From: Bdellovibrionales bacterium
GTDB lineage: Bacteria; Bdellovibrionota; Bdellovibrionia; Bdellovibrionales; CAYMLA01
Direction: 5' to 3'
Length of the DNA stretch: 64,000 nucleotides
Assembly: GCA_965217115.1 (NCBI GenBank)
Contig: OZ244239.1
Coordinates: 902,392 to 966,391, forward strand
This document shows, one piece after another, positions 5,636-61,014 of the stretch. The notes under the pieces are model-generated. The model was not told the origin of the DNA and searched no databases. It was given only the letters and a program-made list of their open reading frames with translations. Numbering within the stretch: the stretch's first letter is position 1; the number at the start of each line of letters is the position of its first letter. The translations under genes were made by a program, and so were the position numbers.

Positions 5636-6748
5636 TTAAGAAATATTCACATCTTCTTCTATACGATGGTACCCTCGCCACTCTTTCAAGCGGCCATAAG
5701 CCTGGCCTTCCTCATTATACTCAATCATCACATAAGTCAGTTTTGTTATCACTCCCAAAGAAGAAATGTCTAATGATGTCAATTCTGTCCAAGTTCCTGT
5801 ATTGAAGTACTCCCCCTTAGGCCATTGCCGATATTGATAAACATGGGTGTGCCCAAAAACAACAGTACTCACCCGATCATCTTCTAAAATTTTACGCGCA
5901 GCCACACTTAAATCAGGAAACACCGCACTCTCCAGCAAAACCCTTAGTATTCTTTGAATAGACCACACCTTTCCCGGCTCATTTTTAAATGGTGAACTCA
6001 AAAAATACCAGAGTAATTTCGAAAAAGTTACCAAAGCAAACCATGTTCTCTGGAACAACATCCAACGAATCATTCTATCAAAAGGACGAATTTTATCTAT
6101 ATGAGGGTAGTGTAGTTTGATGGTCATAACAAAATCGATAAAAAAATGAGAACCAAATGGTAAATTTAGTATTGGCTCTGGTAGATTTTTCTTTAAAAAA
6201 AACTTCCGTGGATCAAAACGATTTGCTGCCTCATGCATATGGCCATGTTCAATATGAACTCCATCAAAAGAATAAACTAAATTCTTATAACGGATTGCAC
6301 AGCCTAAAACTTTATTTAGATAAGCACGCACACCTGGCCACATAACTGCTTGATCATGGTTACCCACAATATATGTAATACTATTGCCTGGAGAAGAGAC
6401 AAATTTACGCAAGGCTTCAAATGCCTTAACGTGTCCTGAAACAATGTTTTTTAACTTCTCAATAGAGACACTCTCCGTAATAACAGTCAGATAATGTCCT
6501 CTATAGTCTACTTGTAAAAAATTAAGAAAATCTCCATTAATAATAAGTTCCAATTCACAATCAACATATTGACCCGTTGTGTAGTAATGGAGGAATTCTA
6601 CAAACTTCTCTTCAAAATAAAATTCTTCTAACTGATTCACACTGCCGTTTTTAAGAACTCGCCCAGTTCCTAAGTGCAAATCACTAATAACTAATTTTAT
6701 TTTATTTTTCCCTTGAGTTTCGTTTTTCTCTGCGAATTGTTCTACCAT
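5636..6748 (-). CDS. Calcineurin-like metallophosphoesterase
   Basis: 370 aa with motifs 'ISDLHLG', 'INGDFLNF', 'VGNHD', 'HIEHGH', 'FGHTH'. Confidence 0.8.
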   Translation of the reverse strand: MVEQFAEKNETQGKNKIKLVISDLHLGTGRVLKNGSVNQLEEFYFEEKFVEFLHYYTTGQYVDCELELIINGDFLNFLQVDYRGHYLTVITESVSIEKLKNIVSGHVKAFEALRKFVSSPGNSITYIVGNHDQAVMWPGVRAYLNKVLGCAIRYKNLVYSFDGVHIEHGHMHEAANRFDPRKFFLKKNLPEPILNLPFGSHFFIDFVMTIKLHYPHIDKIRPFDRMIRWMLFQRTWFALVTFSKLLWYFLSSPFKNEPGKVWSIQRILRVLLESAVFPDLSVAARKILEDDRVSTVVFGHTHVYQYRQWPKGEYFNTGTWTELTSLDISSLGVITKLTYVMIEYNEEGQAYGRLKEWRGYHRIEEDVNIS

Positions 6749-6769
6749 GAAATTGTTTCCCAGAGTTAA

Positions 6770-8167
6770 TTATTTTGCAACTTTTTTAAATTCTAAAACT
6801 GCCCCTTCATCAACTTCAAGATTTGTTAAAGCAAGTCTTAAGGCCTTCACCGTTCGGCGAAATTGTTCTTGATTTTTATCTATTTGCTTGTTTAATTCTT
6901 GGACCTTATTTCTGTAGTTATTTGATTCGCCCAAAAGTTGATCCATTTTTCTTTTGAGTCCCATTAATGTTTCATCTTTTTGTCTAACAACAGCGTGATT
7001 CTCAAGTTTCATCAGTTCAATACGATTTTCAAGTTCCCTTTCACGCACTCTTATTTTCTTTAGGTCAGACGACAATCGACATTCTAGCTCTTCCACTTTG
7101 CTTTTCTTCTCTTCAATTTCTCTTGTCTTATGGTTCACTGCCTCTTTGAGAATTCCCATTTCAGCTGAAAATATTTCTTCTTGATTTCCTAAATACTGTT
7201 TTAATTTTTCTAACTCCCCCATTTTCTCATCGGAGTTTTTCCTAAAAGTTTCACCTGCTGCTGCAAGGTCTTCATTTTCTATGATTAATCTATCAGCTTC
7301 CTTCTCTAACTCTATAATTTTTTGCTGAGCTGCTTTTAGATTTTCAGCTTGCACTAACCCGACTTCACCAGAAAACTTCTCTGTCTCCGAAGTACTCAAA
7401 GAATCTATACCGTAGCTCACTTGTACCTGATCGTCGGAAGCTCCTCCTCCCACCGATTGCACAGCCACTTGAGTGCTCTCATCAGAATTTTCCTCTGTTT
7501 TTATTTTTTCAAAAGCAACAGGCTCTAACGTTGAAGACAATGGTGTTGCCTTTGTCTCATCTTCTTCTTCAACATCTAGGGAGTATAAATTCTCTTCCTG
7601 CTTATTTTGTAACGAAAAACCATCATCCTGTTCTACTTTTTCACAAATATGAACCTCTGTAGCCTCACTATCTACAGCCTCATTACCTACAACCTCATTA
7701 CCTACAGCCTCATTATCTACAACCTCTTTGTCAGTGTGGTTTTCTCTAATTTGCTGGAACATGGTAGGTTCATCATTCTCAGCACCTTCAACAGCAGAAG
7801 CACTCTCTCCGAGATCAAGAACCCCAAACGGGTCTACATCAAGTGAATTTTCATTCATTTGGTTCTCATCACTATTTCCAGCACCTTCGACAGCAGAAGC
7901 ATTCTCTCCGACATCAAGAACCCCAAACGGGTCTACATCAAGTGAATTTTCATTCGTTTGGTTCTCATCACTATTTCCAGCACCTTCGACAGCAGAAGCA
8001 TTCTCTCCGACATCAAGAACCCCAAACGGGTCTACATCAAGTGAATTTTCATTCATTTGGTTCTCATCACTATTTCCAGCACCTTCCGGCGAAATATCGT
8101 CCAAAAGAGATTCCATGATTTCATCAGCTAAAAGCGATGTCTGTTCTAAATTATCCGTCTTTTTCAT
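6770..8167 (-). CDS. Acidic tandem-repeat / coiled-coil protein of unknown function
   Basis: 465-aa ORF. The N-terminal half is very acidic with 33-aa repeats. The C-terminal ~170 aa are heptad-like and rich in E, K and L. No family recognised. Confidence 0.65.
   Translation of the reverse strand: MKKTDNLEQTSLLADEIMESLLDDISPEGAGNSDENQMNENSLDVDPFGVLDVGENASAVEGAGNSDENQTNENSLDVDPFGVLDVGENASAVEGAGNSDENQMNENSLDVDPFGVLDLGESASAVEGAENDEPTMFQQIRENHTDKEVVDNEAVGNEVVGNEAVDSEATEVHICEKVEQDDGFSLQNKQEENLYSLDVEEEDETKATPLSSTLEPVAFEKIKTEENSDESTQVAVQSVGGGASDDQVQVSYGIDSLSTSETEKFSGEVGLVQAENLKAAQQKIIELEKEADRLIIENEDLAAAGETFRKNSDEKMGELEKLKQYLGNQEEIFSAEMGILKEAVNHKTREIEEKKSKVEELECRLSSDLKKIRVRERELENRIELMKLENHAVVRQKDETLMGLKRKMDQLLGESNNYRNKVQELNKQIDKNQEQFRRTVKALRLALTNLEVDEGAVLEFKKVAK
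7781..8086 (-). repeat. About three tandem copies of a 99-bp (33-codon) in-frame repeat
   Basis: The string 'ccccaaacgggtctacatcaagtgaattttcattc' recurs at 7822, 7921 and 8020 (period 99 bp). It encodes 'AVEGAGNSDENQ(M/T)NENSLDVDPFGVLDVGENAS'. Confidence 0.9.
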
Positions 8168-8541
8168 ACCTTAACACTTATCGGGAATATTCTTAGAAAA
8201 ATTAACCTTCATAGGACTAAACAGAAATGGGCTTTTAGCTGTCTCAAATCAAGACACTCAATGGGATTTTGACAAAAAAGGACCTTTTCCTAGCTTTTTG
8301 AGCTTGTCTGTAAGAGCCAAAGGACTTTTGAGAATACAAAAAAGCCCCTCATTTTCCGATGGCCTTCTAACTGGTTTTTTTGTTGGTTGGCCAAACCTGT
8401 CAGAGAGAAGACAATGTATCTTCCTGTTATCGAGAGTTGATATAAGAGATAACTTAGTTTTAATAAAATTGACCAGGTTTATATTGCAAACATTGAAGAT
8501 TAACAGTTCTTAATAATGATATGTAAGCAGGAGACAGATCA

Positions 8542-8913
8542 ATGATTCGAGGAATTCACGATTTTTACTATAACGTAAAAAATATGGAAAAAGCGGTTCA
8601 ATTCTATACTGAGACATTAAATATGAAAGTCACTCATGGGTCAGAACACTGGACAAGTCTTGACTGTGAAGGTGTCATGATAGGTCTACACTGGAGTGGG
8701 GGCAATGATATCCCATCTTTTCCAAGAGATTCTCATGGTGCTCATTGTGGTGGGACTTTGACTTTAGTTAGCGATAATATACCTGAAGATCGAAAAATTT
8801 TAGAAGCAGCAGGTTCTAAAATTTTAGGTGAAATGGATGAACTCTGGGGACATATGCTGATTTTTGAAGATATAGATGGCAATGTTCTTAAACTTCAAAA
8901 CGCGAAGTATTGA
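8542..8913 (+). CDS. VOC/glyoxalase-family protein
   Basis: 123 aa with a glyoxalase-like pattern ('FYTETLNMKV', 'FEDIDGNVLKL'). SD 'caggaga' lies upstream of the ATG. Confidence 0.75.
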   Translation: MIRGIHDFYYNVKNMEKAVQFYTETLNMKVTHGSEHWTSLDCEGVMIGLHWSGGNDIPSFPRDSHGAHCGGTLTLVSDNIPEDRKILEAAGSKILGEMDELWGHMLIFEDIDGNVLKLQNAKY

Positions 8914-9050
8914 GGAGCATATTTGAGCCAATTTAATTTACAGACTAATGGGGGAACCGCCCCCCTAACTCAAGTGAATGAGCCTGTTTTTTAAACCTAA
9001 CCTCTTTGACTAAGCCCTTAGTTTTTAATAAAAGGACACGCATCAATTTA

Positions 9051-9809
9051 TTAAAAATGATAAATTAGATTAATAGCATTTTTCCTATGTTTTACCTTTG
9101 CACCATTTCTGTTAAGGCTTCTAAAAGCATCTGCTTGAAATTCATGTCTAGAATAAACAAACTCTAAACTAAAACCATTATGAAAATTTAAGCCTGCTTT
9201 TAGTGCCCTGTAGCTTCCATCAACATCTGTCTCTCCTTTTGTTCCATATTCTGGATCACCTGGAACTCCGCTGTAGTAACTTTTCGTCCACTTACCCTTT
9301 GTTTTTGCATAACCAGCTCCAACATAAGGGCTCACACCTCTTACTGCAGTAAATATATATAATCCACCAAAATAAATATCGATTGTCTCTACCTCAGATG
9401 AAGGTGAATCAACAACGATATCTACTGGGCCGGTCGCAGTGTTTTGTGTAAACGCAGAACCGTCATCATGTTTCAAAGCAATCTCTTGTCTTGGAGACTT
9501 TATTCTTGTTTTATAAATTCCAACTTCATATCCCCAACCTGTTTCTGGAATATATCTTAGATTATAACCAAAAGACGTACTTCTCTCAATGAGTGCATCT
9601 AATATATTTGCATTTTCCTCTGTTATATCCTCTGGATTAGTGCCTATAAAGTGTCCATAATCCAAATGCTTACCTGTTATATCACTCGTTGAATCTCCCA
9701 CACTGCTGCTAACAAGAAACCCATGTTTAAAGATTTCTTCAGCTTTTGCTTCCTGATTGTGTGTCACTGCTAAGATCATCGTCGCGAGAATAATTATATA
9801 TGTGTGCAT
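9051..9809 (-). CDS. Putative outer-membrane beta-barrel protein
   Basis: Signal peptide 'MHTYIIILATMILAV...AKA', alternating Gly/aromatic-rich strands and a C-terminal '...LIYHF' with terminal Phe. Confidence 0.55.
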   Translation of the reverse strand: MHTYIIILATMILAVTHNQEAKAEEIFKHGFLVSSSVGDSTSDITGKHLDYGHFIGTNPEDITEENANILDALIERSTSFGYNLRYIPETGWGYEVGIYKTRIKSPRQEIALKHDDGSAFTQNTATGPVDIVVDSPSSEVETIDIYFGGLYIFTAVRGVSPYVGAGYAKTKGKWTKSYYSGVPGDPEYGTKGETDVDGSYRALKAGLNFHNGFSLEFVYSRHEFQADAFRSLNRNGAKVKHRKNAINLIYHF

Positions 9810-10021
9810 AACGGCCTCTCCTTCATTGGTCTCGTTCTATCTCTTTAGGAGAAGAAACTCTTAAAGAGCGATCAAACATTATTAGTTTAAACAAACCTGT
9901 CTAAGCTAGCTAAAAGGTTTTCACCCTCTCTTTTAACACAGAGCATCAAAAGATGCCACCTTTTTCCGCTCTTGAGAACTTTTTACAAAAAAGGGTTTTA
10001 TGACTTATACTCGGGGGCTTA

Positions 10022-11092
10022 TCAGATCAAGAGCTCTGGACGTCCTTCATATTTAGACGTCAATTGACCACAGGCTGCATAAATATCTCTACCCATGGTT
10101 TTACGTAAAAGAACATGAACTCCATTGTCCATTAATTCCTCGCGAAAGCGTTCCACCTGCCCATTGCTCGGTCGAACATAATCAGCATCCTCATGCTCAT
10201 TAAAGGGAATTATGTTCACCTTGCAGGGAATTGATTTAGCTATTTCAGCTAAACGTCTAGCGTCAGCAAGAGAGTCTGTCACTCCTTTAAGTAATACATA
10301 CTCAACAGTCACCTTGTCCTTTGTGATTCTTGCGTGTTTTCGACAGGCCTCTAACAATTGTTCAATGGAGTGCTTTTTATTGATCGGCATAATCTCAGAA
10401 CGAACGGCGTTGGAGCTACCATTGAGTGAAACAGCCAAACGCACTCTGGCTTGAGTGACCAATGGAATTTGCTCCACCAGACCAGAAGTTGATACTGTGA
10501 TCTTCTTTCTTGATATATTCATCCCCCAAGGAGAGTGTAAAACTTCAATCGCTTTAAATACAGCTTCGGGATTATCAAGTGGCTCCCCCATTCCCATAAA
10601 AACAATATTCGTAATACGCTGACCCTCTTCTATAAGATTAGAAGCCCCAACAAACTGCCCGACAATTTCTCTGGCACTTAACCGTTTCTTTAGTTTTCTT
10701 TTGCCCGTAAAACAAAACTTACAACCAAGATTACAACCAACCTCCGATGACACACACAAAGTCAAACGCCCATCAGAAGGAATTAAAACAGCCTCGACCG
10801 TCATTGCTACTTGACGATCATCAATCACTTCGCTGACATCAAAAAGAAACTTCTGTGTCCCATCCACACTGATTTTATGTTCCACAACTTTAGGCAAAGA
10901 AAAATTTAGCAACTGAGGCAACTCTTCGCGAAATTTTTTTGAAAGGTTCGTCATTTGCTCAACGTCAGTCACTCCTTTTTCATAAACCCATTTAAAAATC
11001 TGCTGAGCACGAAACTTGGCCTTACCCAAAATCTCCAATCGACTTTGTAAATCATCCAAACTCAAATCATAAAAATAACTCTTTTCCTTCAA
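10022..11092 (-). CDS. rlmN: 23S rRNA/tRNA (adenine-C2)-methyltransferase, radical SAM
   Basis: 356 aa. Has 'RAQQIFKWVY', the radical-SAM cluster 'CNLGCKFCFTG', 'MGMGEPL' and C-terminal 'AACGQL'. Confidence 0.92.
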   Translation of the reverse strand: MKEKSYFYDLSLDDLQSRLEILGKAKFRAQQIFKWVYEKGVTDVEQMTNLSKKFREELPQLLNFSLPKVVEHKISVDGTQKFLFDVSEVIDDRQVAMTVEAVLIPSDGRLTLCVSSEVGCNLGCKFCFTGKRKLKKRLSAREIVGQFVGASNLIEEGQRITNIVFMGMGEPLDNPEAVFKAIEVLHSPWGMNISRKKITVSTSGLVEQIPLVTQARVRLAVSLNGSSNAVRSEIMPINKKHSIEQLLEACRKHARITKDKVTVEYVLLKGVTDSLADARRLAEIAKSIPCKVNIIPFNEHEDADYVRPSNGQVERFREELMDNGVHVLLRKTMGRDIYAACGQLTSKYEGRPELLI

Positions 11093-11195
11093 TCAGCCCT
11101 CCACCAAAGCCCTCTCCTTCTACCACAAACACCAAAATATCTCACCAAAACCCCCTTTAATAATCCATTCTAATCATTTTTTAAGAATTTATTTC

Positions 11196-11248
11196 ACACC
11201 CCCCTCCGTTATTCCCTCCGTTATTCCCCCCGTTGTTCCCAGTCCCCG
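11196..11248 (+). repeat. C-rich 11-12-nt tandem motif (CCCYCCGTTRTT)n preceding hairpin copy A
   Basis: 'cccctccgttatt ccctccgttatt ccccccgttgtt cccagtccccg' read directly from the sequence. Confidence 0.8.
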
Positions 11249-11264
11249 CAAGTTTTCAAATAAA

Positions 11265-11377
11265 TGGTTCAAAGGGTCTTTCATCTTCAAGCGAGTTCGG
11301 ATTGGTGCGCCGCTCGCAAAGCGAGCCGCGCTGCCGAACGAATGTCTGAGCTTGAAGATGGAAGACCCTTTGAACCA
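11265..11377 (+). repeat. GC-rich 113-bp imperfect palindrome, family H, copy A
   Basis: 'tggttcaaagggtctttcatcttcaagc...gcttgaagatggaagaccctttgaacca' around the core 'cgccgctcgcaaagcgagccgcg'. In this copy the palindrome extends into the flanks (aaataaa / tttattt). Confidence 0.9.
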
Positions 11378-11448
11378 TTTATTTCAGACCCAGCTCCCCA
11401 AAACCCATGTTATAGAGAACCATCTTATACAATTCTACTGGGAGAAAT

Positions 11449-11523
11449 AAAGCCCTAGGTAAATAATCAGCCTCTAGCCGACAAGGCTAAGATTTGACGA
11501 CGTACAAAATAAATTATTCCATT
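11449..11523 (+). repeat. 75-bp repeat Q, copy 1
   Basis: 'aagccctaggtaaataatcagcctctagccgacaaggctaagatttgacgacgtacaaaataaattattccatt' is near-identical to 13441-13514. It abuts the LysR stop codon. Confidence 0.85.
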
Positions 11524-12388
11524 ATTCAAGTGAACGTAGACATTTGGCAACTTTTTTCATTTCTGAGCTTTCTGTAGATGATTTTGACTTAACAATATAA
11601 ACATCTCTTTTGATGGGCTTAAAGCCACTTGGGAAATTTTTCTGATATAGCTTATAATCATCTTTAACAATTTGATTGTGAATTTTGGCAATAAAATTTG
11701 GAAGATAAATAACACATAATCCACTCCTTGAAAGTTCTATTGCACTTTCGAGAGTATCAACTCTATGTTGAATTAAGCGTGGAAACTCATGCTCCGGCCA
11801 ACCATCAAGCCCTTTGACACCTGACGGAGCCCCTTTTATTGGTTGTATGGGAGCTACAAAAGGTATTTCCTGAAAATTTAAATTATTAAAAGAACCTTTT
11901 GTTCCGTAAATTGACATTTGAACTTTTGAAATTTTTAAAAAATCTACCCCAGGAGTTGGGATAGGCTCATATGTTATTCCAAAATCTACTATCTTTTTTG
12001 CAACAAATTCTTCTAATTCTCCCTGTCTGGTTTCATAGAGATCTAATTTATAAGTTTCCAACAATGGCTTCAACTTCTTTAAAAAATACGTGCTAAAGAC
12101 CTCAAATGTTGCTATTTTAATATTACTTGATTCAGCTTTTTTATTTATTACACTTAAATCTTCTATTTGATTGATGATGTTCTTAGCTCTCTTATAAATA
12201 ACTACTGCTTCATTGGAGGGCACTATACCTCGGCCTTCGGGTAAAAATAGTTCAAAACCCAGTTCTTCTTCTAATACTTTCAGTGACTTAGACAGCGCAC
12301 CATGGCTCATTCCTATTAGATCAGCGGCACTTCTTAACCCACCAGTTTCAACAACCGTACAAAATTGCTTAAGCCTATTGGTCTCCAT
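11522..12388 (-). CDS. LysR-family transcriptional regulator
   Basis: The HTH 'LKQFCTVVETGGLRSAADLIGMSHGALSKSLKVLEEELG' begins right after the Met at 12388. The upstream 80 codons of the ORF-track call are hydrophobic read-through and were trimmed. Divergent from 12493 (+). Confidence 0.85.
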   Translation of the reverse strand: METNRLKQFCTVVETGGLRSAADLIGMSHGALSKSLKVLEEELGFELFLPEGRGIVPSNEAVVIYKRAKNIINQIEDLSVINKKAESSNIKIATFEVFSTYFLKKLKPLLETYKLDLYETRQGELEEFVAKKIVDFGITYEPIPTPGVDFLKISKVQMSIYGTKGSFNNLNFQEIPFVAPIQPIKGAPSGVKGLDGWPEHEFPRLIQHRVDTLESAIELSRSGLCVIYLPNFIAKIHNQIVKDDYKLYQKNFPSGFKPIKRDVYIVKSKSSTESSEMKKVAKCLRSLE

Positions 12389-12436
12389 ATAGAAACAGAT
12401 ATATAAAATAATTCGATATACGGCAACAATAAAAAT

Positions 12437-12446
12437 GAATATATTC
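12437..12446. promoter_or_regulatory. Perfect 10-bp palindrome GAATATATTC in the LysR/divergent-gene intergenic region (candidate operator)
   Basis: Read directly from the sequence. Its position between divergent starts (12388 and 12493) fits LysR autoregulation. No experimental support. Confidence 0.2.
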
Positions 12447-12492
12447 CGACCTTCTTGAGAAATCAATAAAGGTCTAAAACCGAGGAGGAGAT

Positions 12493-12858
12493 ATGAAAAC
12501 AATAATTTTATTATGTTTATTGATAGGGTCACAGCATATTTTTGCTGCCAGTTGTGACATTGAAAAAGGGCACTACTTAATATTAAAGGTTGATCAACTA
12601 AAGGTAAAAGTAGATTCTTGTGACCCAACTCCAGGGTGGGGCCAGGGAAGAGCTCATTTTGCTACATTTGATAAAAATGATTTAGCTCGAGCAAAGCGAG
12701 AACTACTTACCAAGCATCACCCCCTGATACCTGACCGTTGTCAATTACTAGGAACAGGTGATATTGAAATTATAAGTAATCGTAGTCTTTGTAGCTTCTC
12801 AGGGGTAGACGAAGCAACAGCAAATTTCACCGTAAGATATAAGTGTCACTTATTCTGA
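12493..12858 (+). CDS. Small secreted protein, unknown function
   Basis: 121 aa. SD 'gaggagg' lies 4 nt upstream. Signal peptide 'MKTIILLCLLIGSQHIFA', five Cys. Confidence 0.6.
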   Translation: MKTIILLCLLIGSQHIFAASCDIEKGHYLILKVDQLKVKVDSCDPTPGWGQGRAHFATFDKNDLARAKRELLTKHHPLIPDRCQLLGTGDIEIISNRSLCSFSGVDEATANFTVRYKCHLF

Positions 12859-12939
12859 TTTAATGTAACTGTTCCTTTAATTCTGTGCAGAGGACGGTAT
12901 GCTAATAAATGTATTTAATAGAGTTAAGGGAAGTGAGAC

Positions 12940-13449
12940 ATGTTATCAAATTTTAAGTTAATTGAATTTTCATCAATAATGTTACTTATTCTAGGTAGTC
13001 TCTCTTTTGCAGGAGTTAAAAACGAAGAGGTTATCTATAAAAAATTGATTCTCAAAGCCAGTAAAGAACAGATTTGGTCTACATTGACTGATCAAAATGA
13101 ACTGGGCAAATGGTGGAATAAAGGAGTCAGACTTGAACCATATGTCGGTGGACAATTCTATGAACCTTGGGGAGAGGGGCAATTAGCCACTGGGAAAGTA
13201 GTAGATTTAAAATTTCAAAAGTTTATAAAGTTTACTTGGAAAGAGAAGTATTGGAATTCTTCTGAAAGTACAGTTTGTACATTTTTTCTAGAGAAAGTAG
13301 AAAAAGGGACGGTCTTAAAAATTCATCATTCTGGCTGGGAGTCTATTAAAGAATTAAGTAAAAGAAAAAAACTAATTGAAGGATTTCAGAAGGGCTGGGA
13401 CCTTCTTTTACCAAAATTGAAGAAATATGTTGAATCGGAAAAGCCCTAG
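12940..13449 (+). CDS. SRPBCC-superfamily (AHSA1/START-like) protein with N-terminal signal/anchor
   Basis: 'ILKASKEQIWSTLTDQNELGKWW...GG.F...W' is typical of the Aha1-like SRPBCC family. The stop codon lies inside repeat Q copy 2. Confidence 0.75.
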   Translation: MLSNFKLIEFSSIMLLILGSLSFAGVKNEEVIYKKLILKASKEQIWSTLTDQNELGKWWNKGVRLEPYVGGQFYEPWGEGQLATGKVVDLKFQKFIKFTWKEKYWNSSESTVCTFFLEKVEKGTVLKIHHSGWESIKELSKRKKLIEGFQKGWDLLLPKLKKYVESEKP

Positions 13450-13514
13450 GTAAATAATCAGGCTCTAGCCGACAAGGCTAAGATTTGACGACGTACAAAA
13501 TAAATTATTCCATT
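13441..13514 (+). repeat. 75-bp repeat Q, copy 2
   Basis: Near-identical to 11449-11523. It spans the SRPBCC stop codon and ends 12 nt before the next gene's ATG. Confidence 0.85.
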
Positions 13515-13526
13515 GGATTATCAGAT

Positions 13527-14117
13527 ATGAATACTAAAAAAGAAAGTTGGAATGATTATTACAAAAAAATAAGCAGAAAACCTCCTAGCCTATTACTTAA
13601 GGTGGCCTTAAATGAGGTTAAGCAGATTGGTATTGCTTATGACTTAGGGGCTGGAGCAGGAGTTGACTCAAAATTTCTAGCCAAACAAGGTTGGAATGTT
13701 TTTGCTGTAGATAAAGAACCGTCATCTATTAATTTTATTAGGAAAATCAAAACAGTGAGAGGTGATATTAAACCTGTTTTATCTAACTTTGAAGAATTAA
13801 CTCTTCAAAAAGCCCATCTTATATTTGCATCATTTTCTTTACCGTTTTGTAGCCCGTGTAAATTTCCATTTTTATGGAACAAAATACAATCATCACTGGT
13901 CGGCGGGGGCATATTGGCTGGAACATTGCTTGGAAATAACGATAGTTGGGTCAAAGATTCTAACGGAGGAATGACATTTCAAACAAATAAACAGATTCTC
14001 GATTTATTTGAAGATTATGAAATTTTATATTTCGATGAACAGGAAGAGGATCGTCCAACGGCTCTAGGAAAGCAAAAGCACTGGCATGTATACAGTTTTG
14101 TAGTCCGAAAACACTAG
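13527..14117 (+). CDS. Class I SAM-dependent methyltransferase (TehB-like size)
   Basis: Motif I 'AYDLGAGAGVDSKFLAKQGWNVFAVDKEP'. ATG 13527 is preferred over the TTG at 13485, which lies inside repeat Q. Confidence 0.8.
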   Translation: MNTKKESWNDYYKKISRKPPSLLLKVALNEVKQIGIAYDLGAGAGVDSKFLAKQGWNVFAVDKEPSSINFIRKIKTVRGDIKPVLSNFEELTLQKAHLIFASFSLPFCSPCKFPFLWNKIQSSLVGGGILAGTLLGNNDSWVKDSNGGMTFQTNKQILDLFEDYEILYFDEQEEDRPTALGKQKHWHVYSFVVRKH

Positions 14118-14151
14118 GTTCTGAGGCGAATTAAAAATCACAAAGCTCAGG
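14114..14151 (+). repeat. 38-bp post-ORF repeat S, copy 1
   Basis: 'ctaggttctgaggcgaattaaaaatcacaaagctcagg' includes the stop codon TAG of the methyltransferase gene. It recurs at 16208 and 17059. Confidence 0.85.
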
Positions 14152-14173
14152 CTTTTAAGATGCCTCCCGTAAA

Positions 14174-14230
14174 GAAGATGAAAGCCCCTTTGAACCAACC
14201 TTATCTACCAAAAGTTAAGTCCTCTCTTTA
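14174..14230 (+). repeat. Truncated H (right arm only) plus tail T
   Basis: 'gaagatgaaagcccctttgaacca' followed by 'accttatctaccaaaagttaagtcctctcttta'. Confidence 0.85.
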
Positions 14231-14281
14231 ACCCCCGCTGTTCCCCCCGTTGTTCCCAATCCCCGCTGTTCCCAGTCCACG
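14231..14281 (+). repeat. C-rich 11-12-nt tandem motif (CCCCCGYTGTT)n
   Basis: 'acccccgctgtt ccccccgttgtt cccaatccccgctgtt cccagtccacg'. Confidence 0.8.
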
Positions 14282-14297
14282 CAAGTTTTCAAATAAA

Positions 14298-14410
14298 TAG
14301 TTCAAAGGGTCTTTTATCTTCAAGCGAGTTCGGATTGGTGCGCCGCTCGCAAAGCGAGCTGCGCTGCCGAACGAATGTCTGAGCTTGAAGATGAAAGCCC
14401 CTTTGAACCA
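14298..14410 (+). repeat. H palindromic repeat, copy B (followed by tail T at 14411-14445)
   Basis: Same 113-bp sequence as copy A with a few substitutions. Preceded by 'caagttttcaaataaa'. Confidence 0.9.
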
Positions 14411-14467
14411 CGCCTTATTTGCCAAAAGTTAAGTTCTCTATTTAGTCCCCAACCTCTCAGCCAAAGC

Positions 14468-14560
14468 CTCTTTTTAAAACTCTAAATTGACAATCTACGC
14501 AAGGGGTTAGACACCTCAAAAACTCTCAGGCATCGATAAATTGATGTCTAAGCTATTTTC
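14468..14560 (+). repeat. ~95-bp repeat U, copy 1
   Basis: 'ctttttaaaactctaaattgacaatctacgcaaggggttagacacctcaaaaactctcagg...' is about 80% identical by eye to 15417-15510. Confidence 0.75.
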
Positions 14561-14675
14561 TCCATGGCATAGAATATGCTGTCTAAAGTCTTGAAATTAA
14601 TGGTATCAGTCTGATTTAGGAGAATTAAATGAAAAAATTATTATTTTTAACAACTATTATTTTGAGGGTATGCCT

Positions 14676-14948
14676 GTGAGATTAGTAAGAACTATCACTA
14701 TCGCTTTAAGTATTTTTTTGAGCTTTGCTGTGTTAGCAAGCGACTATGAGTGTTCAGGATTATTTATGAAGTGCTCTGAAGGAGAAGAAATACATCACCT
14801 TACTAGATTGTCAGAATCTGAATGTAGTGGATCATATGAGGGATGTAGGCAGTACTTAAAAAACGAATTAAAGAACTTACGGAAAGTAAAAAAAACTGAA
14901 GTGTTTTGCTATTTCGATGAATACCGTAACGAAGCTATCTGTTTATAA
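14676..14948 (+). CDS. Small Cys-rich secreted protein, unknown function
   Basis: Signal peptide '(M)RLVRTITIALSIFLSFAVLA' and 7 Cys in the mature part. GTG 14676 has SD 'gaggg' 7 nt upstream. An in-frame ATG at 14670 is the alternative start. Confidence 0.5.
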   Translation: MRLVRTITIALSIFLSFAVLASDYECSGLFMKCSEGEEIHHLTRLSESECSGSYEGCRQYLKNELKNLRKVKKTEVFCYFDEYRNEAICL

Positions 14949-15001
14949 CTAGATTAGTAAAGATGGTTTAAGATGTAAAATACACTCAGCAGGAATACTC
15001 T

Positions 15002-15026
15002 CTGCAAAGATAAGAGTTCTTTGCAG
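15002..15026 (+). terminator. Stem-loop downstream of the 14948 stop (8-bp stem CTGCAAAG / CTTTGCAG, 9-nt loop)
   Basis: Read directly from the sequence. No immediate U-tract follows, so terminator function is uncertain. Confidence 0.3.
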
Positions 15027-15093
15027 CAGCTTGAACAAAGAAATTTCTTTTTCACCTAAGGTTTCTTCTAAAACATGATCCAAAATATACGAG

Positions 15094-15172
15094 CCAAACG
15101 AATGCCTGAGCTTAAAGATGAAAGCCCCTTTGAACCAACCTTATCTACCAAAAGTTAAGTTCTCTATTTAGT
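15094..15172 (+). repeat. Truncated H (right ~44 bp) plus tail T
   Basis: 'ccaaacgaatgcctgagcttaaagatgaaagcccctttgaacca' + 'accttatctaccaaaagttaagttctctatttagtcc'. Confidence 0.85.
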
Positions 15173-15251
15173 CCTTAAGATCCCACCAAACAAGGCACAC
15201 ACCCCGCCCCTTGCCCCCGCTGTTCCCAGTCCCCGCAAGTTTTCAAATAAA

Positions 15252-15364
15252 TGGTTCAAAGGGTCTTTTATCTTCAAGCGAGTTCGGATTGGTGCGCCGC
15301 TCGCAAAGCGAGCCGCGCTGCCGAACGAATGTCTGAGCTTGAAGATGGAAGACCCTTTGAACCA
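15252..15364 (+). repeat. H palindromic repeat, copy C (tail T at 15365-15398)
   Basis: Near-identical to copies A, D and E. Preceded by the C-rich motif and 'caagttttcaaataaa'. Confidence 0.9.
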
Positions 15365-15416
15365 GCCTTACCTACCAAAAGTTAAGTCCTCTCTTTAGTC
15401 TGCTGCCCCAGAAAAA

Positions 15417-15510
15417 ACTCTTTTTAAAACTCTAAACTGACAATCTGTGCAAGGGATTAGACACCTCAGAAAAGCTCAGTTACCGATAGATTTATGTCTG
15501 AGCTGTTTTT
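15417..15510 (+). repeat. ~95-bp repeat U, copy 2
   Basis: 'ctttttaaaactctaaactgacaatctgtgcaagggattagacacctcagaaaagctcag...' parallels 14468-14560. A degenerate Q-like stretch follows at 15531-15570. Confidence 0.75.
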
Positions 15511-15765
15511 TCGATGAGCGGTAAATAATTGATCCCCAGCCAACAGGACTAGAATATCATAGCGAGGCCACTGGAAAGTGGTCTTTTTCCTTTGGGGCCG
15601 GAAAACGTCACTTCTAAAAGCAATCCCCGAAAAAATTGAAAAATTTACATCACTCGATGATTTTCCCCTTAAAAGTGCACGAATCAGTTATAATAATTCA
15701 AACAATATCAATCAAATTTAAGAGAATTTGTCCCCCAAGGAAATAGAACGATATCAAGAGGAGAA

Positions 15766-16176
15766 ATGATGAAAAAAATATTAATTGGTTTAACTCTTTT
15801 AATGTCCGTTACAGTTTTTGCTGAGAAAAGGATTATCACCTGCTCAAATACGGCTATCACAGTTCATTCGGAGAATATTATCGGAGGGGAATTCACTGTG
15901 ACGCCTTCTAAAGGAATTCAGCATAAACTAACTATCAAATTGGAAGGAGGAGCAGATTCAATTTTTTGGGCTACTTCAGACACTTCTCAAGAACAACTTT
16001 TTGCTGGAGGCATCATGCATAATGCCAGTAGCTTAACCATGTTTCCTGGCGGTAATAAAGCAATGTTGTCCTTCGAAGGCGATATTTATCCTTTGGTGTG
16101 TGATAAAAAATGGAGTACTGAGTTGAGTAAATGGCTTGAAGAATGGCACCAAAGGGAGAAAAGGTGGTCTTGGTAG
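15766..16176 (+). CDS. Secreted protein, unknown function
   Basis: 136 aa. SD 'agaggag' upstream. Signal peptide 'MMKKILIGLTLLMSVTVFA'. Confidence 0.55.
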   Translation: MMKKILIGLTLLMSVTVFAEKRIITCSNTAITVHSENIIGGEFTVTPSKGIQHKLTIKLEGGADSIFWATSDTSQEQLFAGGIMHNASSLTMFPGGNKAMLSFEGDIYPLVCDKKWSTELSKWLEEWHQREKRWSW

Positions 16177-16207
16177 TAAACTCATTAACTAGACAGATTT
16201 TTTTTCA

Positions 16208-16245
16208 CTAGGTTCTGAGGCTAATTAAAAATCACAAAACTCAGG
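16208..16245 (+). repeat. Post-ORF repeat S, copy 2 (no H follows)
   Basis: 'ctaggttctgaggctaattaaaaatcacaaaactcagg'. Confidence 0.8.
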
Positions 16246-16299
16246 AACTCTAAACGAATCGAACAAATAAACCATTAGTTTATCGAGGATAGAAAGACT

Positions 16300-17058
16300 T
16301 TGAGATTACTTTTAATATTGTTTTTTTCTGCATTTATATTTAGTGATACCTCTTGGGCTTCTTCTTCATGTGCAGACTTTCTCGGGAGTTCATTCAGAAG
16401 TGAAAGTCGTGTTATTACGACCGATACAATAGTTAAAAAAAGTGATGCTCCCATCTTAATGAAAGATATTTTAGGTTTTGTATATTACACTAAATTAAAT
16501 TGGAAAAATTTTATATCTAAACATCGAAGAAAGGTTCGTTTATATGATACTGATTGGAGCAGAGAGAATTTCCTTAAGGAACAATTACTCTTACCTAAAG
16601 ACTTAAAGCCTGATGAGCGAAAGATTATCTTAAAAATAAAGAGAGAGACATCACCGGAATCAAAACATTATAAAAAGGCGCAAGAATTAGAAGGGACTCC
16701 AGATATTATTGGAGTTGAGTCTGCTATTTTGAAAATTAAACTTAAAAGCAACGACATTTATTATGCTGAACACACTTCAAATAGAGAGACATCAATAAAA
16801 GTTCAAGATATTCTTTCAGCATTATCTGGAATAGGAAGAAAAAAGAATTTCTCGCCAAATGATATTGCAGAATTACACTTTTTCCATAATCATCCAGGAA
16901 TAACTCAACCTATCTCAAAGCCTGATGTGGGAGTTGCCAAGAAATTTGTAAAAATTTTTGGTGATAATAATCCCGATTTTAAATTTCACATGTATGCAAT
17001 TAGTTTTGAAAATAGTCTTCGTCCAACACTTATCTTTCATGCTGGGTTTCAGAATTGA
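16300..17058 (+). CDS. Secreted protein with a JAB/MPN+ (JAMM) metalloprotease motif
   Basis: TTG start with 'gagga' 10 nt upstream. Signal peptide 'MRLLLILFFSAFIFSDTSWA'. 'HFFHNHPGITQPISKPD' matches H-x-H-x7-S-x2-D exactly, with a candidate upstream Glu in 'YYAEHTS'. Confidence 0.6.
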   Translation: MRLLLILFFSAFIFSDTSWASSSCADFLGSSFRSESRVITTDTIVKKSDAPILMKDILGFVYYTKLNWKNFISKHRRKVRLYDTDWSRENFLKEQLLLPKDLKPDERKIILKIKRETSPESKHYKKAQELEGTPDIIGVESAILKIKLKSNDIYYAEHTSNRETSIKVQDILSALSGIGRKKNFSPNDIAELHFFHNHPGITQPISKPDVGVAKKFVKIFGDNNPDFKFHMYAISFENSLRPTLIFHAGFQN

Positions 17059-17096
17059 CTAGGTTCTGAGGCGAATTAAAAATCACAAAGCTCAGG
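17059..17096 (+). repeat. Post-ORF repeat S, copy 3
   Basis: Identical to copy 1. Starts immediately after the TGA stop at 17056-17058. Confidence 0.85.
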
Positions 17097-17118
17097 CTTT
17101 TAAGATGCCTCCCGCAAA

Positions 17119-17166
17119 GAAGATGAAAGCCCCCTTTGAACCAACCTTATCTACCAAAAGTTAAGT
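17119..17166 (+). repeat. Truncated H (right arm) plus tail T
   Basis: 'gaagatgaaagccccctttgaacca' + 'accttatctaccaaaagttaagtc'. Confidence 0.85.
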
Positions 17167-17230
17167 CCGTTGTTCCCCCGCTGTTCCCCATTGTCCCCCC
17201 CCCTGTTCCCCCCGCTGTTCCCAGTCCCCG
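17167..17230 (+). repeat. C-rich 11-12-nt tandem motif, longest array
   Basis: 'cgttgtt cccccgctgtt ccccattgt ccccccccctgtt ccccccgctgtt cccagtccccg'. Confidence 0.8.
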
Positions 17231-17246
17231 CAAGTTTTCAAATAAA

Positions 17247-17359
17247 TGGTTCAAAGGGTCTTTTATCTTCAAGCGAGTTCGGATTGGTGCGCCGCTCGCA
17301 AAGCGAGCCGCGCTGCCGAACGAATGTCTGAGCTTGAAGATGGAAGACCCTTTGAACCA
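17247..17359 (+). repeat. H palindromic repeat, copy D (tail T at 17360-17392)
   Basis: Full 113-bp copy, in tandem with copy E about 215 bp downstream. Confidence 0.9.
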
Positions 17360-17461
17360 GCCTTATCTACCAAAAGTTAAGTCCTCTATATAGGCCTTAA
17401 GCCCCCCACCGAACACCCCATACCTTCGCTGTTCCCAGTCCACGCAAGTTTTCAAATAAAA

Positions 17462-17574
17462 TGGTTCAAAGGGTCTTTCATCTTCAAGCGAGTTCGGATT
17501 GGTGCGCCGCTCGCAAAGCGAGCTGCGCTGCCGAACGAATGTCTGAGCTTGAAGATGGAAGACCCTTTGAACCA
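17462..17574 (+). repeat. H palindromic repeat, copy E (tail T overlaps the hldA-like stop codon)
   Basis: Full copy. The tail 'gccttatctgccagaagttaagttctctatgtagg' at 17575-17608 contains the TAA stop (17578-17580, minus strand) of the neighbouring gene. Confidence 0.9.
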
Positions 17575-17577
17575 GCC

Positions 17578-18618
17578 TTATCTGCCAGAAGTTAAGTTCT
17601 CTATGTAGGCCTTAAGCCCCCCCCCCGAACAAGGTACACACCCCACCTTACCCACAACAAACCCCGCTGCAAAATTAGACAAAACACAGGAATCTAATAG
17701 TGACAATTGAGCTGCCTTTGCTAACGCTAAAGTTGCTACCACAGTATCCCCCGCCCCCGTCACATCAAAAACCTGACGGGCATAGGTGGGAACAATGTTC
17801 ACTTGTTCTGCGCTGTAAAGAACCATTCCTTCACTTCCCCGAGTTAAAACCAATTCATCGGCGCCTATTTTATCACGAATTCTCTGTCCTAAATTTAAAA
17901 TAGCCTGCTCATCTTGCCAACAACGATCAAAAGATTCTCCCAAAAGAGTTAAACTCTCCTCAAAATTGGGCTTAAATAGATTCGCCCCGCGATAAAAATC
18001 CAGGGGAGTCTCTCGATGGGGGTCAATTAAAACTTGCTTAGAAGATGACTTGGCAATGAGCAAAATTTCTTGAATCAAAGTCTCATTCAACAGTCCTTTG
18101 GCGTAATCCTGTAAAACAACCGCTTGGCACTGATCAATATTATCCTTGATCACTTGCAATATCTTCCTATGAACACTCTCACTGATATCCTGACGACGCT
18201 CATAATCAACGCGCACAATGTGATTATGACCTGTCATAACTCGAGCTTTACGTGTCGTTGGACGGCAGGAGTCTTCCACAAGATATTGACCTTCAATTCC
18301 CTCTCTCTCTAAAATATCACGTAACTTATCAGCTCCTTGGTCCTTTCCAATCACTGAAACAAGAATAGGATAACCCCCCAAACCGACAATATTATGAGCT
18401 ACATTGGCCGCCATCCCCAGACGAGTATCTTCTTTTTTAACCTCTAGAACTGGCACTGGAGCTTCTGGGCTAATTCTGCGCACATCACCAGTGATATATT
18501 CATCCAACCCACAATCACCTACCACTAAGATTCTCTTATCTGACAGAGTTTCAACTTGTTGTAAGAGCTTCGGTAAAAGTTCTTTACCTGGAATAGAGCT
18601 TTGAAAGGGCTTTAACAT
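17578..18618 (-). CDS. hldA: D-glycero-beta-D-manno-heptose-7-phosphate kinase (RfaE domain I type, PfkB family)
   Basis: 'ILVVGDCGLDEYITGDVRRISPEAPVPVL' is the RfaE-kinase hallmark, and 'DVTGAGDTVVATLA' is the PfkB motif. The last ~22 codons are encoded by repeat-related sequence. Confidence 0.85.
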   Translation of the reverse strand: MLKPFQSSIPGKELLPKLLQQVETLSDKRILVVGDCGLDEYITGDVRRISPEAPVPVLEVKKEDTRLGMAANVAHNIVGLGGYPILVSVIGKDQGADKLRDILEREGIEGQYLVEDSCRPTTRKARVMTGHNHIVRVDYERRQDISESVHRKILQVIKDNIDQCQAVVLQDYAKGLLNETLIQEILLIAKSSSKQVLIDPHRETPLDFYRGANLFKPNFEESLTLLGESFDRCWQDEQAILNLGQRIRDKIGADELVLTRGSEGMVLYSAEQVNIVPTYARQVFDVTGAGDTVVATLALAKAAQLSLLDSCVLSNFAAGFVVGKVGCVPCSGGGLKAYIENLTSGR

Positions 18619-18803: not shown

Positions 18804-20066
18804 ATGGATAAACTACTCAAAGGTCAGTTTTTTGAAAACACCCTCCGCTCACTCGAAAATGCAGGCCGAGTTATCAACATAGACCCCAACGTTATGGAGC
18901 GTCTTAAATATCCTAAAAGATGTATCATTATGAGTATCCCCATCCGCATGGACGACTACAGTGTTAAAGTCTTCACTGGATACCGCGTTCAGCACAACTC
19001 CACACTTGGACCATTTAAAGGGGGTATTCGTTACCATCAAAATGTGACTCTTAGTGAAGTCGCAGCGTTATCCACTCTTATGACTTTTAAGAATTCTCTC
19101 CTAGGTCTTCCTCTAGGAGGAGGTAAGGGTGGCGTGACAGTTGACCCCACGCAGCTCTCTAAGACAGAAAAACAAAATCTCACTCGGCGTTACGCCAGTG
19201 AACTGAGCACCTTTATTGGCCCACGCACAGATATCCCAGCGCCAGATGTTGGAACAACTCCACAAACCATGGCTTGGTTTATGGATACGTACTCTCAAGA
19301 GACAGGCCTTGCACAACCAGGGTGTGTCACTGGAAAACCTGTCGCTATCGGTGGAACTGAAGGTCGGGCTGGCGCCACAGGACTTGGAGTTGTTTACTGC
19401 ACCGAACGAGCCTGGCAGAAATTAGGTCGGAAAATGTCTGAGGTATCAATCGCCATACAGGGTTTTGGAAATGTTGGCCAAAATGCCGCTCTCTATAGCC
19501 ACCGTCTTGGTTCTAAAGTTATCGCTGTCAGTGATGTCTTTGGAGGCTTTTATGACCCTGAAGGACTCGATATACCAGGTATGATCGAATATGCAAAAGC
19601 ATACAAGTCTCTTAAAGGATACTCCAAAGGGGCTGCCATTTCCAACGAAGAACTTCTGCATTTAGACGTAGACTCTCTTTTGCCTTGCGCCCTTGAGGGA
19701 GTGATTCACAAGGATAATTTTGACAAGGTCAAAGCAAAAATGATTGTCGAAGGAGCCAACGGGCCTTGCACTATCGAAGCCAGTAAAGCCCTACGAGAAA
19801 AAAATGTTCACATCATCCCTGATGTTCTTGCCAATGGCGGAGGTGTAGTTGTCAGTTACTTTGAGTGGGTGCAGGATGCCACTTCTTCCCTCTTTTGGGG
19901 AGAAACTGAGGTCAATCGTCGTCTAGAAACCATCATGCACAAAGCATTTGATACAGTTTGGGCATTTTCAGAAGAAAAAAATTTAGATATGAGATTATCC
20001 GCAATGTCCGTTTCTGTTAAACGCCTTGAACGTGCCACTCTTATGCGAGGGCTTTATCCTAGATAA
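18804..20066 (+). CDS. gdh: Glutamate dehydrogenase (Glu/Leu/Phe/Val dehydrogenase family)
   Basis: 420 aa with 'GPFKGGIRYH', 'PLGGGKGGV' and the NAD(P) fold 'IQGFGNVG'. Confidence 0.92.
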   Translation: MDKLLKGQFFENTLRSLENAGRVINIDPNVMERLKYPKRCIIMSIPIRMDDYSVKVFTGYRVQHNSTLGPFKGGIRYHQNVTLSEVAALSTLMTFKNSLLGLPLGGGKGGVTVDPTQLSKTEKQNLTRRYASELSTFIGPRTDIPAPDVGTTPQTMAWFMDTYSQETGLAQPGCVTGKPVAIGGTEGRAGATGLGVVYCTERAWQKLGRKMSEVSIAIQGFGNVGQNAALYSHRLGSKVIAVSDVFGGFYDPEGLDIPGMIEYAKAYKSLKGYSKGAAISNEELLHLDVDSLLPCALEGVIHKDNFDKVKAKMIVEGANGPCTIEASKALREKNVHIIPDVLANGGGVVVSYFEWVQDATSSLFWGETEVNRRLETIMHKAFDTVWAFSEEKNLDMRLSAMSVSVKRLERATLMRGLYPR

Positions 20067-33627: not shown

Positions 33628-33672
33628 CAGAAACCTTCCATTCAAATTCAATGGGTTTTTCATGTGCTGCTC

Positions 33673-34845: not shown

Positions 34846-34889
34846 CACAGACCTTCCTTTCAAATTCAATGATTTTTCATGTGCTGCTC

Positions 34890-36071: not shown

Positions 36072-36166
36072 CATAGACCTTCCTTTCAAATTCAATGATT
36101 TTTCATGTGCTGTTCTTAACCAATACTCTTTAAGCAGAGAAATGCTAAATTTTAAACACCTCTCTC

Positions 36167-37336: not shown

Positions 37337-37526
37337 CACAGACCTTCCTTTACAAGAACTCTTTAAAATTCACCACTGACATAGTGTATAACACTCCAAT
37401 CCCGGGTCCTAGTTCCATTCCTCATTTCCATTTTAATTCTTGGCTTAAGACTGGAAGTGAACTAGACCTTTGTGTTATGTAAATTTCTTAAGATCTCTTG
37501 CAAAAAAAACCCGAAATCGCCCGATC

Positions 37527-61012: not shown

Positions 61013-61014
61013 CC

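Follow-up and report, generated by a model that had tools for sequence, protein, structure and literature searches.

Repeats formed by a long hairpin and the hldA gene end bracket small gene modules between rlmN and hldA in a Bdellovibrionales bacterium

At the 3' end of the fda gene in Streptococcus thermophilus, ICESt1 and its relatives exemplify tandem accretion, and they include cis-mobilizable elements (CIMEs) that lack an integrase. The islands that occupy ssrA in Dehalococcoides are associated with direct repeats. Phage e14, which resides at icd in Escherichia coli, and similar elements carry a replacement 3' end of the protein-coding gene that they target. The terms accretion and CIME are used in PMC5704250 and PMC6323972, and PMC3146451 reports that the Dehalococcoides vcrABC island integrated at ssrA. 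Here, we describe a related arrangement in a window of 64,000 nt (the whole stretch of DNA that was analysed, from contig OZ244239.1 of a Bdellovibrionales bacterium; low-GC, about 39%). An island of 6.5 kb lies between rlmN (10022-11092) and hldA (17578-18618, encoding heptose-7-phosphate kinase of the PfkB family), both on the minus strand. Its gene modules are bracketed by copies of a composite repeat, consisting of a 113-nt hairpin, H, and a tail, T, copied from the 3' end of hldA. Structures of this kind, with gene-end direct repeats delimiting stacked islets, are already known. The present variant is unusual in its tiny modules, in their alternation with gene-less units of 215 nt, in the long hairpin within the repeat and in the absence of a recombinase gene within 64 kb.

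As in tandem islands and CIMEs, successive modules are set off by direct repeats in one orientation, each copying the 3' end of the target gene (hldA), which is itself intact; some modules are devoid of an integrase and the composition of the cargo is unlike that of the core. Unlike in those systems, the modules measure only 0.7-2.8 kb and alternate with the gene-less units, the repeat comprises a near-perfect hairpin, the single segment common to every copy lies just beyond the gene, a cognate integrase is absent from the 64 kb, and excision or strain variation is not seen in this one genome. The duplication of the last codons of a housekeeping protein gene is reminiscent of e14 at icd; however, elements of the e14 type are single, large and integrase-encoding, whereas here an array of tiny modules is found. 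With integron arrays and their integrase-less counterparts (integrase-less integron cassette arrays, or CALINs) the locus has in common small co-oriented open reading frames (ORFs), structured palindromes between them and the lack of a recombinase next to the array, but it has no attC signature, another stem architecture, a repeat that is partly derived from hldA and a multigene module with genes in two orientations. Finally, the locus recalls ERIC, Correia and REPIN sequences and bacterial interspersed mosaic elements (BIMEs) in the size of its palindrome (about 110-130 nt) and the long inverted ends, in the mosaic of short intergenic repeats and in a plausible terminator-like role. Such families are dispersed over genomes, whereas here every copy falls within a single 6.4-kb interval and the common flanks take in a gene end.

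The key to the locus is the origin of T. A previous sequence-only reading of this DNA had recognized the copies of T, which are real, but had missed what they are: T and the adjoining C-rich spacer form the 3' end of hldA. The native copy with its spacer (17576 to about 17669) reads on the minus strand as the hldA coding end, FAAGFVVGKVGCVPCSGGGLKAYIENLTSGR followed by the stop codon; the encoded terminus is ...GKVGCVPCSGGGLKAYIENLTSGR-stop, and T plus spacer read as a gene end gives ...GGGLKAYIENLTSGR-stop. Since L-K-x-Y-I near the end of HldA aligns with HldA orthologues, this rightmost copy is the native gene end, and the last ~30 codons of hldA (17578-17669) are the source of T and spacer. 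T is found in seven copies including the functional one, all on the plus strand and all within the island, as direct repeats of a gene 3' end. The six non-native ones are co-oriented, decayed copies of 26-78 nt: one of 78 nt (15139-15216), one of 66 nt with a 9-nt deletion (17361-17426) and others of 26-40 nt. Their translation is ...IE(N/D)LTFG(R/K)-stop. All six have TTT (F) where the functional LTSGR end has TCT (S), with five reading LTFGR and one LTFGK, and they therefore go back to a common source other than the present hldA end. As T copies the hldA 3' end and H starts 3 nt past the hldA stop codon, the repeats look like att-site duplications at a gene 3' end.

H0, the hairpin copy next to rlmN, is not followed by T. 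A displaced native hldA end beside rlmN was looked for in regions a and x (see below), where nothing scored above shuffles (region a, 14 against a shuffle mean of 17). An alignment with MAFFT suggested a diverged T after H0, which is not trusted because of this result.

The hairpin itself is near-perfect, with a predicted folding energy of -46.9 kcal/mol as DNA (z = -8.8) and -86.4 kcal/mol as RNA (z = -9.5). The predicted stem is a bulge-free duplex of 28 bp with a single mismatch. Its terminal inverted repeats have arms of 28 nt (35 nt in H0) that are 93-97% complementary, and its ends read GTTCAAA...TTTGAAC, with termini GGTTCAAAGGGT. Searching with the H arm at up to three mismatches yielded 11 matches, all within 11266-17573, as opposed to none in shuffles. 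They correspond to five full copies, namely H0 (11265-11377), H2 (14298-14410), H3 (15252-15364), H5a (17247-17359) and H5b (17462-17574), and to three copies that retain only the right arm, at 14174-14197 (24 nt), 15093-15137 (about 45 nt) and 17119-17143 (25 nt). All eight are co-oriented, and none occurs in the other 57 kb of the window, which consists mostly of core genes with many intergenic sites; the counts given in the sequence-only reading are thereby confirmed. The H cores are 97-100% identical and the five full units are nearly identical from leader through right arm. About 35 nt of left flank (the leader) is common to the five full copies and the hldA tail on the right is common to four of them, while all eight repeat copies have nothing in common but the last 24 nt of H, adjacent to the hldA stop codon. 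Two arm haplotypes can be distinguished: H0, H3, H5a and H5b have alpha, whereas the three truncated copies have beta, as does H2 in its right arm. Both repeats that flank the p92 module combine a beta arm with the same tail variant (beta/TTTAGTCC haplotype). By eye, tail and arm match the E. coli dif site poorly.

On the minus strand, hldA is followed by UAA-GGC, the 113-nt hairpin (H5b) and a U-rich run, AUUUUAUUUG; the 241-nt stretch of this region folds at -101 kcal/mol (z = -5). A stable hairpin right after the stop codon and a subsequent U-rich run are the sequence features of an intrinsic terminator, and H on the minus strand most likely now also serves as the hldA terminator. A general promoter and terminator scan gave no enrichment over shuffles.

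Outside the island, the repeats have not been encountered. The H arm pattern had no match in GTDB representative genomes, JGI metagenomes and viral contigs, nor had the H centre in metagenomes. Likewise, the junction 17050-17660 had no BLASTN match in plasmid and phage collections. When units E and repeats S, U and R75 were compared with 83 related loci by nhmmer and blastn-short, only chance-level matches were obtained. A 254-aa concatenate of six H reading frames found no match among 5.8 billion proteins, a collection from which the window's own H-ORFs are also absent, so that this search had no positive control. Rfam gave no match, at gathering scores over the whole window or at E <= 1 in the island, and no tRNA gene was found.

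Read along the plus strand, the island begins with region a (11093-11201), unique DNA upstream of rlmN that carries the rlmN ribosome-binding site. Unit E0 (11202-11384) comes next, with C-rich 12-mers (11202-11240), leader (11228-11264) and H0 but no hldA tail, its palindrome extending over 11258-11384. It is followed by region x, a first copy of the 75-nt direct repeat R75 (11449-11523), lysR, p121, the SRPBCC gene, the second R75 (13440-13514), the methyltransferase gene and repeat S (14113-14173, starting at the methyltransferase stop codon). In the middle part, a truncated right arm of 24 nt (beta haplotype) with hldA tail (14174-14235) precedes unit E2 (14232-14450), which is composed of C-rich 12-mers, leader, H2 and an hldA-tail copy (14413-14450). 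Module U (14451-14566, upstream of p92), p92 and region y then lead to a truncated beta arm of about 45 nt with the longest hldA-tail pseudo-copy (15093-15216; tail of 78 nt, alignment score 122). The right part consists of unit E3 (15215-15402; leader, H3 and an hldA-tail copy at 15366-15402), a second U (15403-15516) with an R75-like piece (together 15403-15551), p136, a partial S (16207-16245) with a 30-nt motif (16252-16281, the pair spanning 16207-16281), p252 and a further S (17058-17118). Downstream of this S, a beta arm (17119-17143; 24 nt in the general scheme) and an hldA-tail copy (17145-17168) complete a segment at 17058-17168, and two last units adjoin hldA. Unit E5a (17167-17426) has C-rich 12-mers, leader, H5a and the tail pseudo-copy 17361-17426, which encodes GGLKAYIEDLTFGR-stop; unit E5b (17424-17574) has a leader and H5b, which on the minus strand starts 3 nt after the hldA stop and is followed by the U-rich run. 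All these units and repeats are given in plus-strand orientation, region a having none assigned. The GC of the repeat units is 0.51-0.53.

From this order a regular bracketing emerges. Towards rlmN, each of three gene modules (11385-14173, 14451-15092 and 15403-17118) is bounded by a full H, and towards hldA by a truncated arm with an hldA tail; gene-less 215-nt units (C-rich leader, H, hldA tail) stand between modules, which range from 0.7 to 2.8 kb. The first module contains four genes in two orientations, including the divergent lysR. An ordered junction after several of the ORFs had been reported in the sequence-only reading. The complete order, S, truncated arm, T, C-rich 12-mers, leader 'caagttttcaaataaa', H and T, exists in two places. 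One instance follows the methyltransferase gene (14113-14441) and the other follows p252 (17058-17389), with 90% identity between them over 340 nt; only partial versions follow p92, where S is absent, and p136, where just the first 40 nt of S are found. The C-rich motif is indeed repeated in tandem, as 12-nt units according to TRF. U is located after H-T in two places (14451-14566 and 15403-15516), its copies being 83-88% identical.

Other repeats and remnants are superimposed on this arrangement. The R75 copies are 99% identical and bracket lysR, p121 and the SRPBCC gene, as a further, independent pair of repeats that bounds a module within the island, with a partial third copy at 15520-15551. 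The first 9-10 nt of R75 copy 1 match the last codons and stop of the SRPBCC gene, and this copy contains a terminator-like hairpin on the minus strand after lysR. An open frame on the minus strand (14949-15137) extends out of the truncated 45-nt arm into region y (...YILDHVLEETLGEKEISLFKLLQRTLIFAESIPAECILHLKPSLLI-stop) and has no Pfam match; perhaps it is what is left of the C-terminal part of a gene that was cut at the hairpin.

In the closest relative found (locus L082, with an HldA that is 67% identical), rlmN is located 78 nt after hldA, within the same synteny as in the window: gcvP, redoxin, HU, glycosyltransferase, NUDIX, pyrD, gdh, hldA and rlmN. In the other of the two closest relatives (L083) the gap between hldA and rlmN is 42 nt. 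In both, rlmN directly follows hldA, and the whole 6.5-kb interval is thus a lineage-specific insertion into a short hldA-rlmN spacer. The two genes abut in L005 and L009 as well, and adjacency is the ancestral state. The four empty sites all belong to distant organisms, with HldA identities of at most 67%. The best matches of RlmN itself, at 59-63% identity, are in Bdellovibrionales and Pseudobdellovibrionaceae genomes. More distant relatives (L002 at 6272-9904, L003, L004 and L006) have inserts of 1-3.7 kb with unrelated genes in the same spacer (five ORFs in the case of Bdellovibrio sp. HCB290); neither hldA-tail copies nor repeats of the island type are found in these four inserts. Judged from these comparisons, gene gain seems to recur at this spacer, which also varies in other members of the order. 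The insert of L004 contains a 32-nt repeat in two copies, which includes the palindrome TTCTCCGCGCGGAGAA.

The composition of the cargo is foreign. Its GC is between 0.316 and 0.387, with five of six genes at or below 0.346, compared with 0.392 +/- 0.028 for the core (48 genes); these five are AT-richer than the core.

We consider it about an even chance, with a probability of roughly one half, that the interval is a small genomic islet built at the hldA 3' end by repeated recombination at one composite site. This site would consist of the last hldA codons and hairpin H, starting 3 nt past the stop. Incoming foreign modules, circular or linear, would have carried their own right end of H (24-45 nt) and an hldA tail, and would have recombined with the resident hairpin-plus-tail in Campbell fashion. 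Each event would leave a full H (with tail) on the rlmN side and a truncated arm with tail on the hldA side; the gene-less 215-nt units could be regarded as solo sites or as tandem duplicates of the site. The enzyme might be a site-specific recombinase that is encoded elsewhere and acts in trans, or it might be RecA, for which the homology of 65-200 nt between module ends and the resident site is sufficient. We infer that the array was assembled by recombination at the H-tail repeats; the common source of the pseudo-copies, the AT-rich cargo and the position of the only p252 homologue at another locus, with no H, S or T nearby, also speak for it. Serial insertion, either of gene cassettes or by tandem islet accretion, had already been proposed in the sequence-only reading. 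Its accretion part gains support from the origin of T in hldA, from the adjacency of hldA and rlmN in relatives and from the bracketing of the modules, while its integron-like part does not stand.

Several points weigh against repeated recombination at a composite site. Not one of the 55 ORFs of at least 80 aa in the window matches a recombinase, transposase or reverse-transcriptase family of Pfam, in agreement with the earlier statement that no recombinase is encoded there. The breaks between repeat and unique DNA vary, being found 24 or 45 nt into H, right after H (E0) and 0-78 nt into the hldA tail, and there is no single crossover point. Both junctions of S with a 24-nt arm are copies of one event, as their 90% identity over 340 nt indicates, and therefore only about three independent junction types are left. 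The hldA tail is missing from E0, and a displaced native hldA end is not detectable beside rlmN. The duplicated S, U and R75 certainly show ordinary segmental duplication or homologous exchange and gene conversion at work, and the near-identity of the H cores fits recent duplication or gene conversion equally well. Moreover, a single genome is available, with no second strain in which modules might be gained or lost and no evidence of excision. The homology suffices for RecA, the boundaries vary and S, U and R75 each occur more than once; the analysis could not separate site-specific from homologous recombination or local duplication.

The main alternative, possible though more doubtful, is passive local amplification. 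One hairpin, the hldA terminator and perhaps originally an insertion of a miniature inverted-repeat transposable element (MITE), would have been duplicated in tandem with the last ~90 nt of hldA by microhomology-mediated slippage, after which unequal crossing-over and gene conversion would have multiplied and shuffled the units. The repeats would then be by-products instead of recombination sites, and the cargo would have been acquired in unrelated illegitimate events, possibly at breaks in the long palindrome, or the whole island would have arrived in one piece. Such a process is suggested by the perfect tandem of two 215-nt units that adjoins hldA (1.9 copies with 95% matches by TRF), and by the 8-mer CCCCGCTG at which the hldA-derived part of the unit ends and which recurs at the left edge of the leader, an 8-nt microhomology that is the proposed starting point. 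It also accords with the duplication of S, U and R75, with the almost identical H cores and with truncated arms that end at differing points (24 and 45 nt), as would result from deletions or break repair. The allele common to all pseudo-copies, unlike the functional hldA end, would fit a single assembly, possibly in a donor. Amplification leaves unexplained, however, why all three gene modules are bracketed with the same polarity and why unrelated AT-rich cargo landed solely between units, and the first duplication with coding sequence would still require an illegitimate event.

It is unlikely that H belongs to a dispersed family of intergenic palindromic repeats of the MITE, REPIN, ERIC or Correia type, the locus being a dense cluster similar to a BIME. 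ERIC, Correia and REPIN elements are typically of the size and shape of H, which with its 113 nt and terminal inverted repeats of 28-35 nt would not be out of place among them, and several types of small repeats form a mosaic, as in BIMEs. The H termini also resemble those, GGTTCATGGGT, of an element in locus L081 that belongs to the IS1595 family and has a 7-bp target duplication. The confinement of H argues otherwise: no copy is found in the other 57 kb, in the 83 related loci, in GTDB representative genomes, in JGI metagenomes or in the plasmid and phage collections, and the window has no transposase or RAYT gene. Full copies share their left flank of ~35 nt in all five cases and the hldA tail in four, and therefore the duplicated unit is larger than the palindrome. 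Of the hallmarks of a MITE, terminal inverted repeats are present, but the flanks are not unrelated and there is no target-site duplication, no direct repeat flanking any copy.

Similarly unlikely is the idea that H with the hldA tail represents the recombination site of an undescribed cassette-capture system in a Bdellovibrionales lineage, a functional analogue of the integron at a housekeeping gene. In such a system, modules of 0.7-3 kb, equipped with only the final 24-45 nt of the hairpin plus the gene tail, would be inserted and excised by a hairpin-processing enzyme or by a recombinase whose gene is elsewhere. An integrase-less integron cassette array with H as attC, as the gene-cassette part of the sequence-only reading implied, is hardly credible and is rejected: small co-oriented ORFs are each followed by an imperfect palindrome within the length range of attC (57-141 nt), but a regular-expression search of both strands of the island found no RYYYAAC...GTTRRRY box pair (0 pairs), the ends of H have the inverse of the attC order, the 28-bp stem with one mismatch has no unpaired central spacer, bulge or extrahelical base, only five of the eight copies are hairpins, a divergent lysR and three other genes share one module, the break points vary, the repeat includes part of a housekeeping gene and the window has no intI gene.

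If the repeats are true recombination sites, the locus would represent a very compact stacking of single genes at the end of a housekeeping gene, achieved without a resident integrase, and the fusion of a gene tail with a long perfect hairpin would be unusual for an att site. If they are mere duplication scars, it would be a clear example of a long palindrome beside a gene end that seeds a hotspot of gene gain. The mobilome of the predatory Bdellovibrionales and their relatives is poorly described.

The cargo is unremarkable, comprising small secreted proteins, an SRPBCC protein, a TehB-like methyltransferase and a LysR regulator. Seven genes are present, lysR on the minus strand and six ORFs on the plus strand. 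The family assignments proposed at the outset, as well as the housekeeping nature of the flanks, are borne out by Pfam: RlmN_N and Radical_SAM domains for RlmN and a PfkB-family kinase matching HldA; HTH_1 and LysR_substrate for the LysR-family regulator (11522-12391, divergent from p121, GC 0.333); AHSA1 for the SRPBCC protein (12940-13449; PF08327, E = 2e-17); and PF03848 (E = 1.6e-9) for the S-adenosylmethionine-dependent methyltransferase (13527-14117), which NCBIfam TehB models match below their cut-offs. The remaining proteins have no family match: p121 (12493-12858) and p136 (15766-16176), both small with a signal-peptide-like N-terminus, p92 (14670-14948), small and Cys-rich, and p252 (16300-17058). 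PADLOC and NCBIfam detected no defence or mobile-element family in the cargo, just the weak TehB and LysR matches. A signal-peptide-like start (ATGAAAAAATTATTATTT...) is found at 14630, 40 nt before the p92 ORF and in another frame, which stops after 16 codons; p92 may be frameshifted or mis-started. A small ORF in locus L081 (at 9674) has a similar break, at a homopolymer run.

For p252, the suggestion of a JAMM-motif protein holds as far as the motif is concerned, HxHx7SxxD being present and kept in the single homologue, but the JAMM fold could not be verified: the AlphaFold2 model, from an alignment of two sequences, has a mean pLDDT of 50, and Foldseek found no match in the PDB at E <= 0.001. 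Among 5.8 billion proteins there are just two matches, p252 itself and a protein (P0002) with 77% aa identity. The latter is encoded between pgpA and cinA-recA on a 0.8-Mb contig of an organism with 34% GC (locus L081). Nucleotide identity between the two genes amounts to 82.6% and is restricted to the coding sequence, and H, S and T are absent near P0002 in that locus. A 30-nt motif, AAACGAAtcGAACAAAtAAACCATTAGTTT, stands just upstream of p252 (16252-16281) but 200 nt downstream of its homologue in L081 (11135-11165). Its score is about 9 standard deviations above shuffles, as a single short match, and its placement would fit a circularly permuted module. In the same locus, an IS1595-family transposase gene (19145-19912) lies between inverted termini of 18 nt, GGTTCATGGGTAGTTAAG, and a duplication of 7 bp (ATAGTTT); over their first 11-12 nt these termini resemble those of H.

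Elsewhere in the window, a 465-aa acidic protein is encoded on the minus strand at 6770-8167. It has three near-identical tandem repeats of ~33 aa (EGAGNSDENQxNENSLDVDPFGVLDxGExASAV) and a coiled-coil-like half after them, and it belongs to no Pfam family. At 32467-37339, also on the minus strand, four tandem paralogues of about 400 aa with signal-peptide-like starts and no Pfam family are 69-75% identical overall, with N-terminal parts of ~170 residues that are almost identical and C-terminal halves that diverge. The run of four is followed by a gene for a 570-aa tetratricopeptide repeat protein (37527-39239). Finally, a scramblase-family match (PF03803, E = 7e-43; 60359-61051, minus strand) is located within a mur/fts cluster of cell-wall and division genes, between Mur ligase and mraY-like genes.

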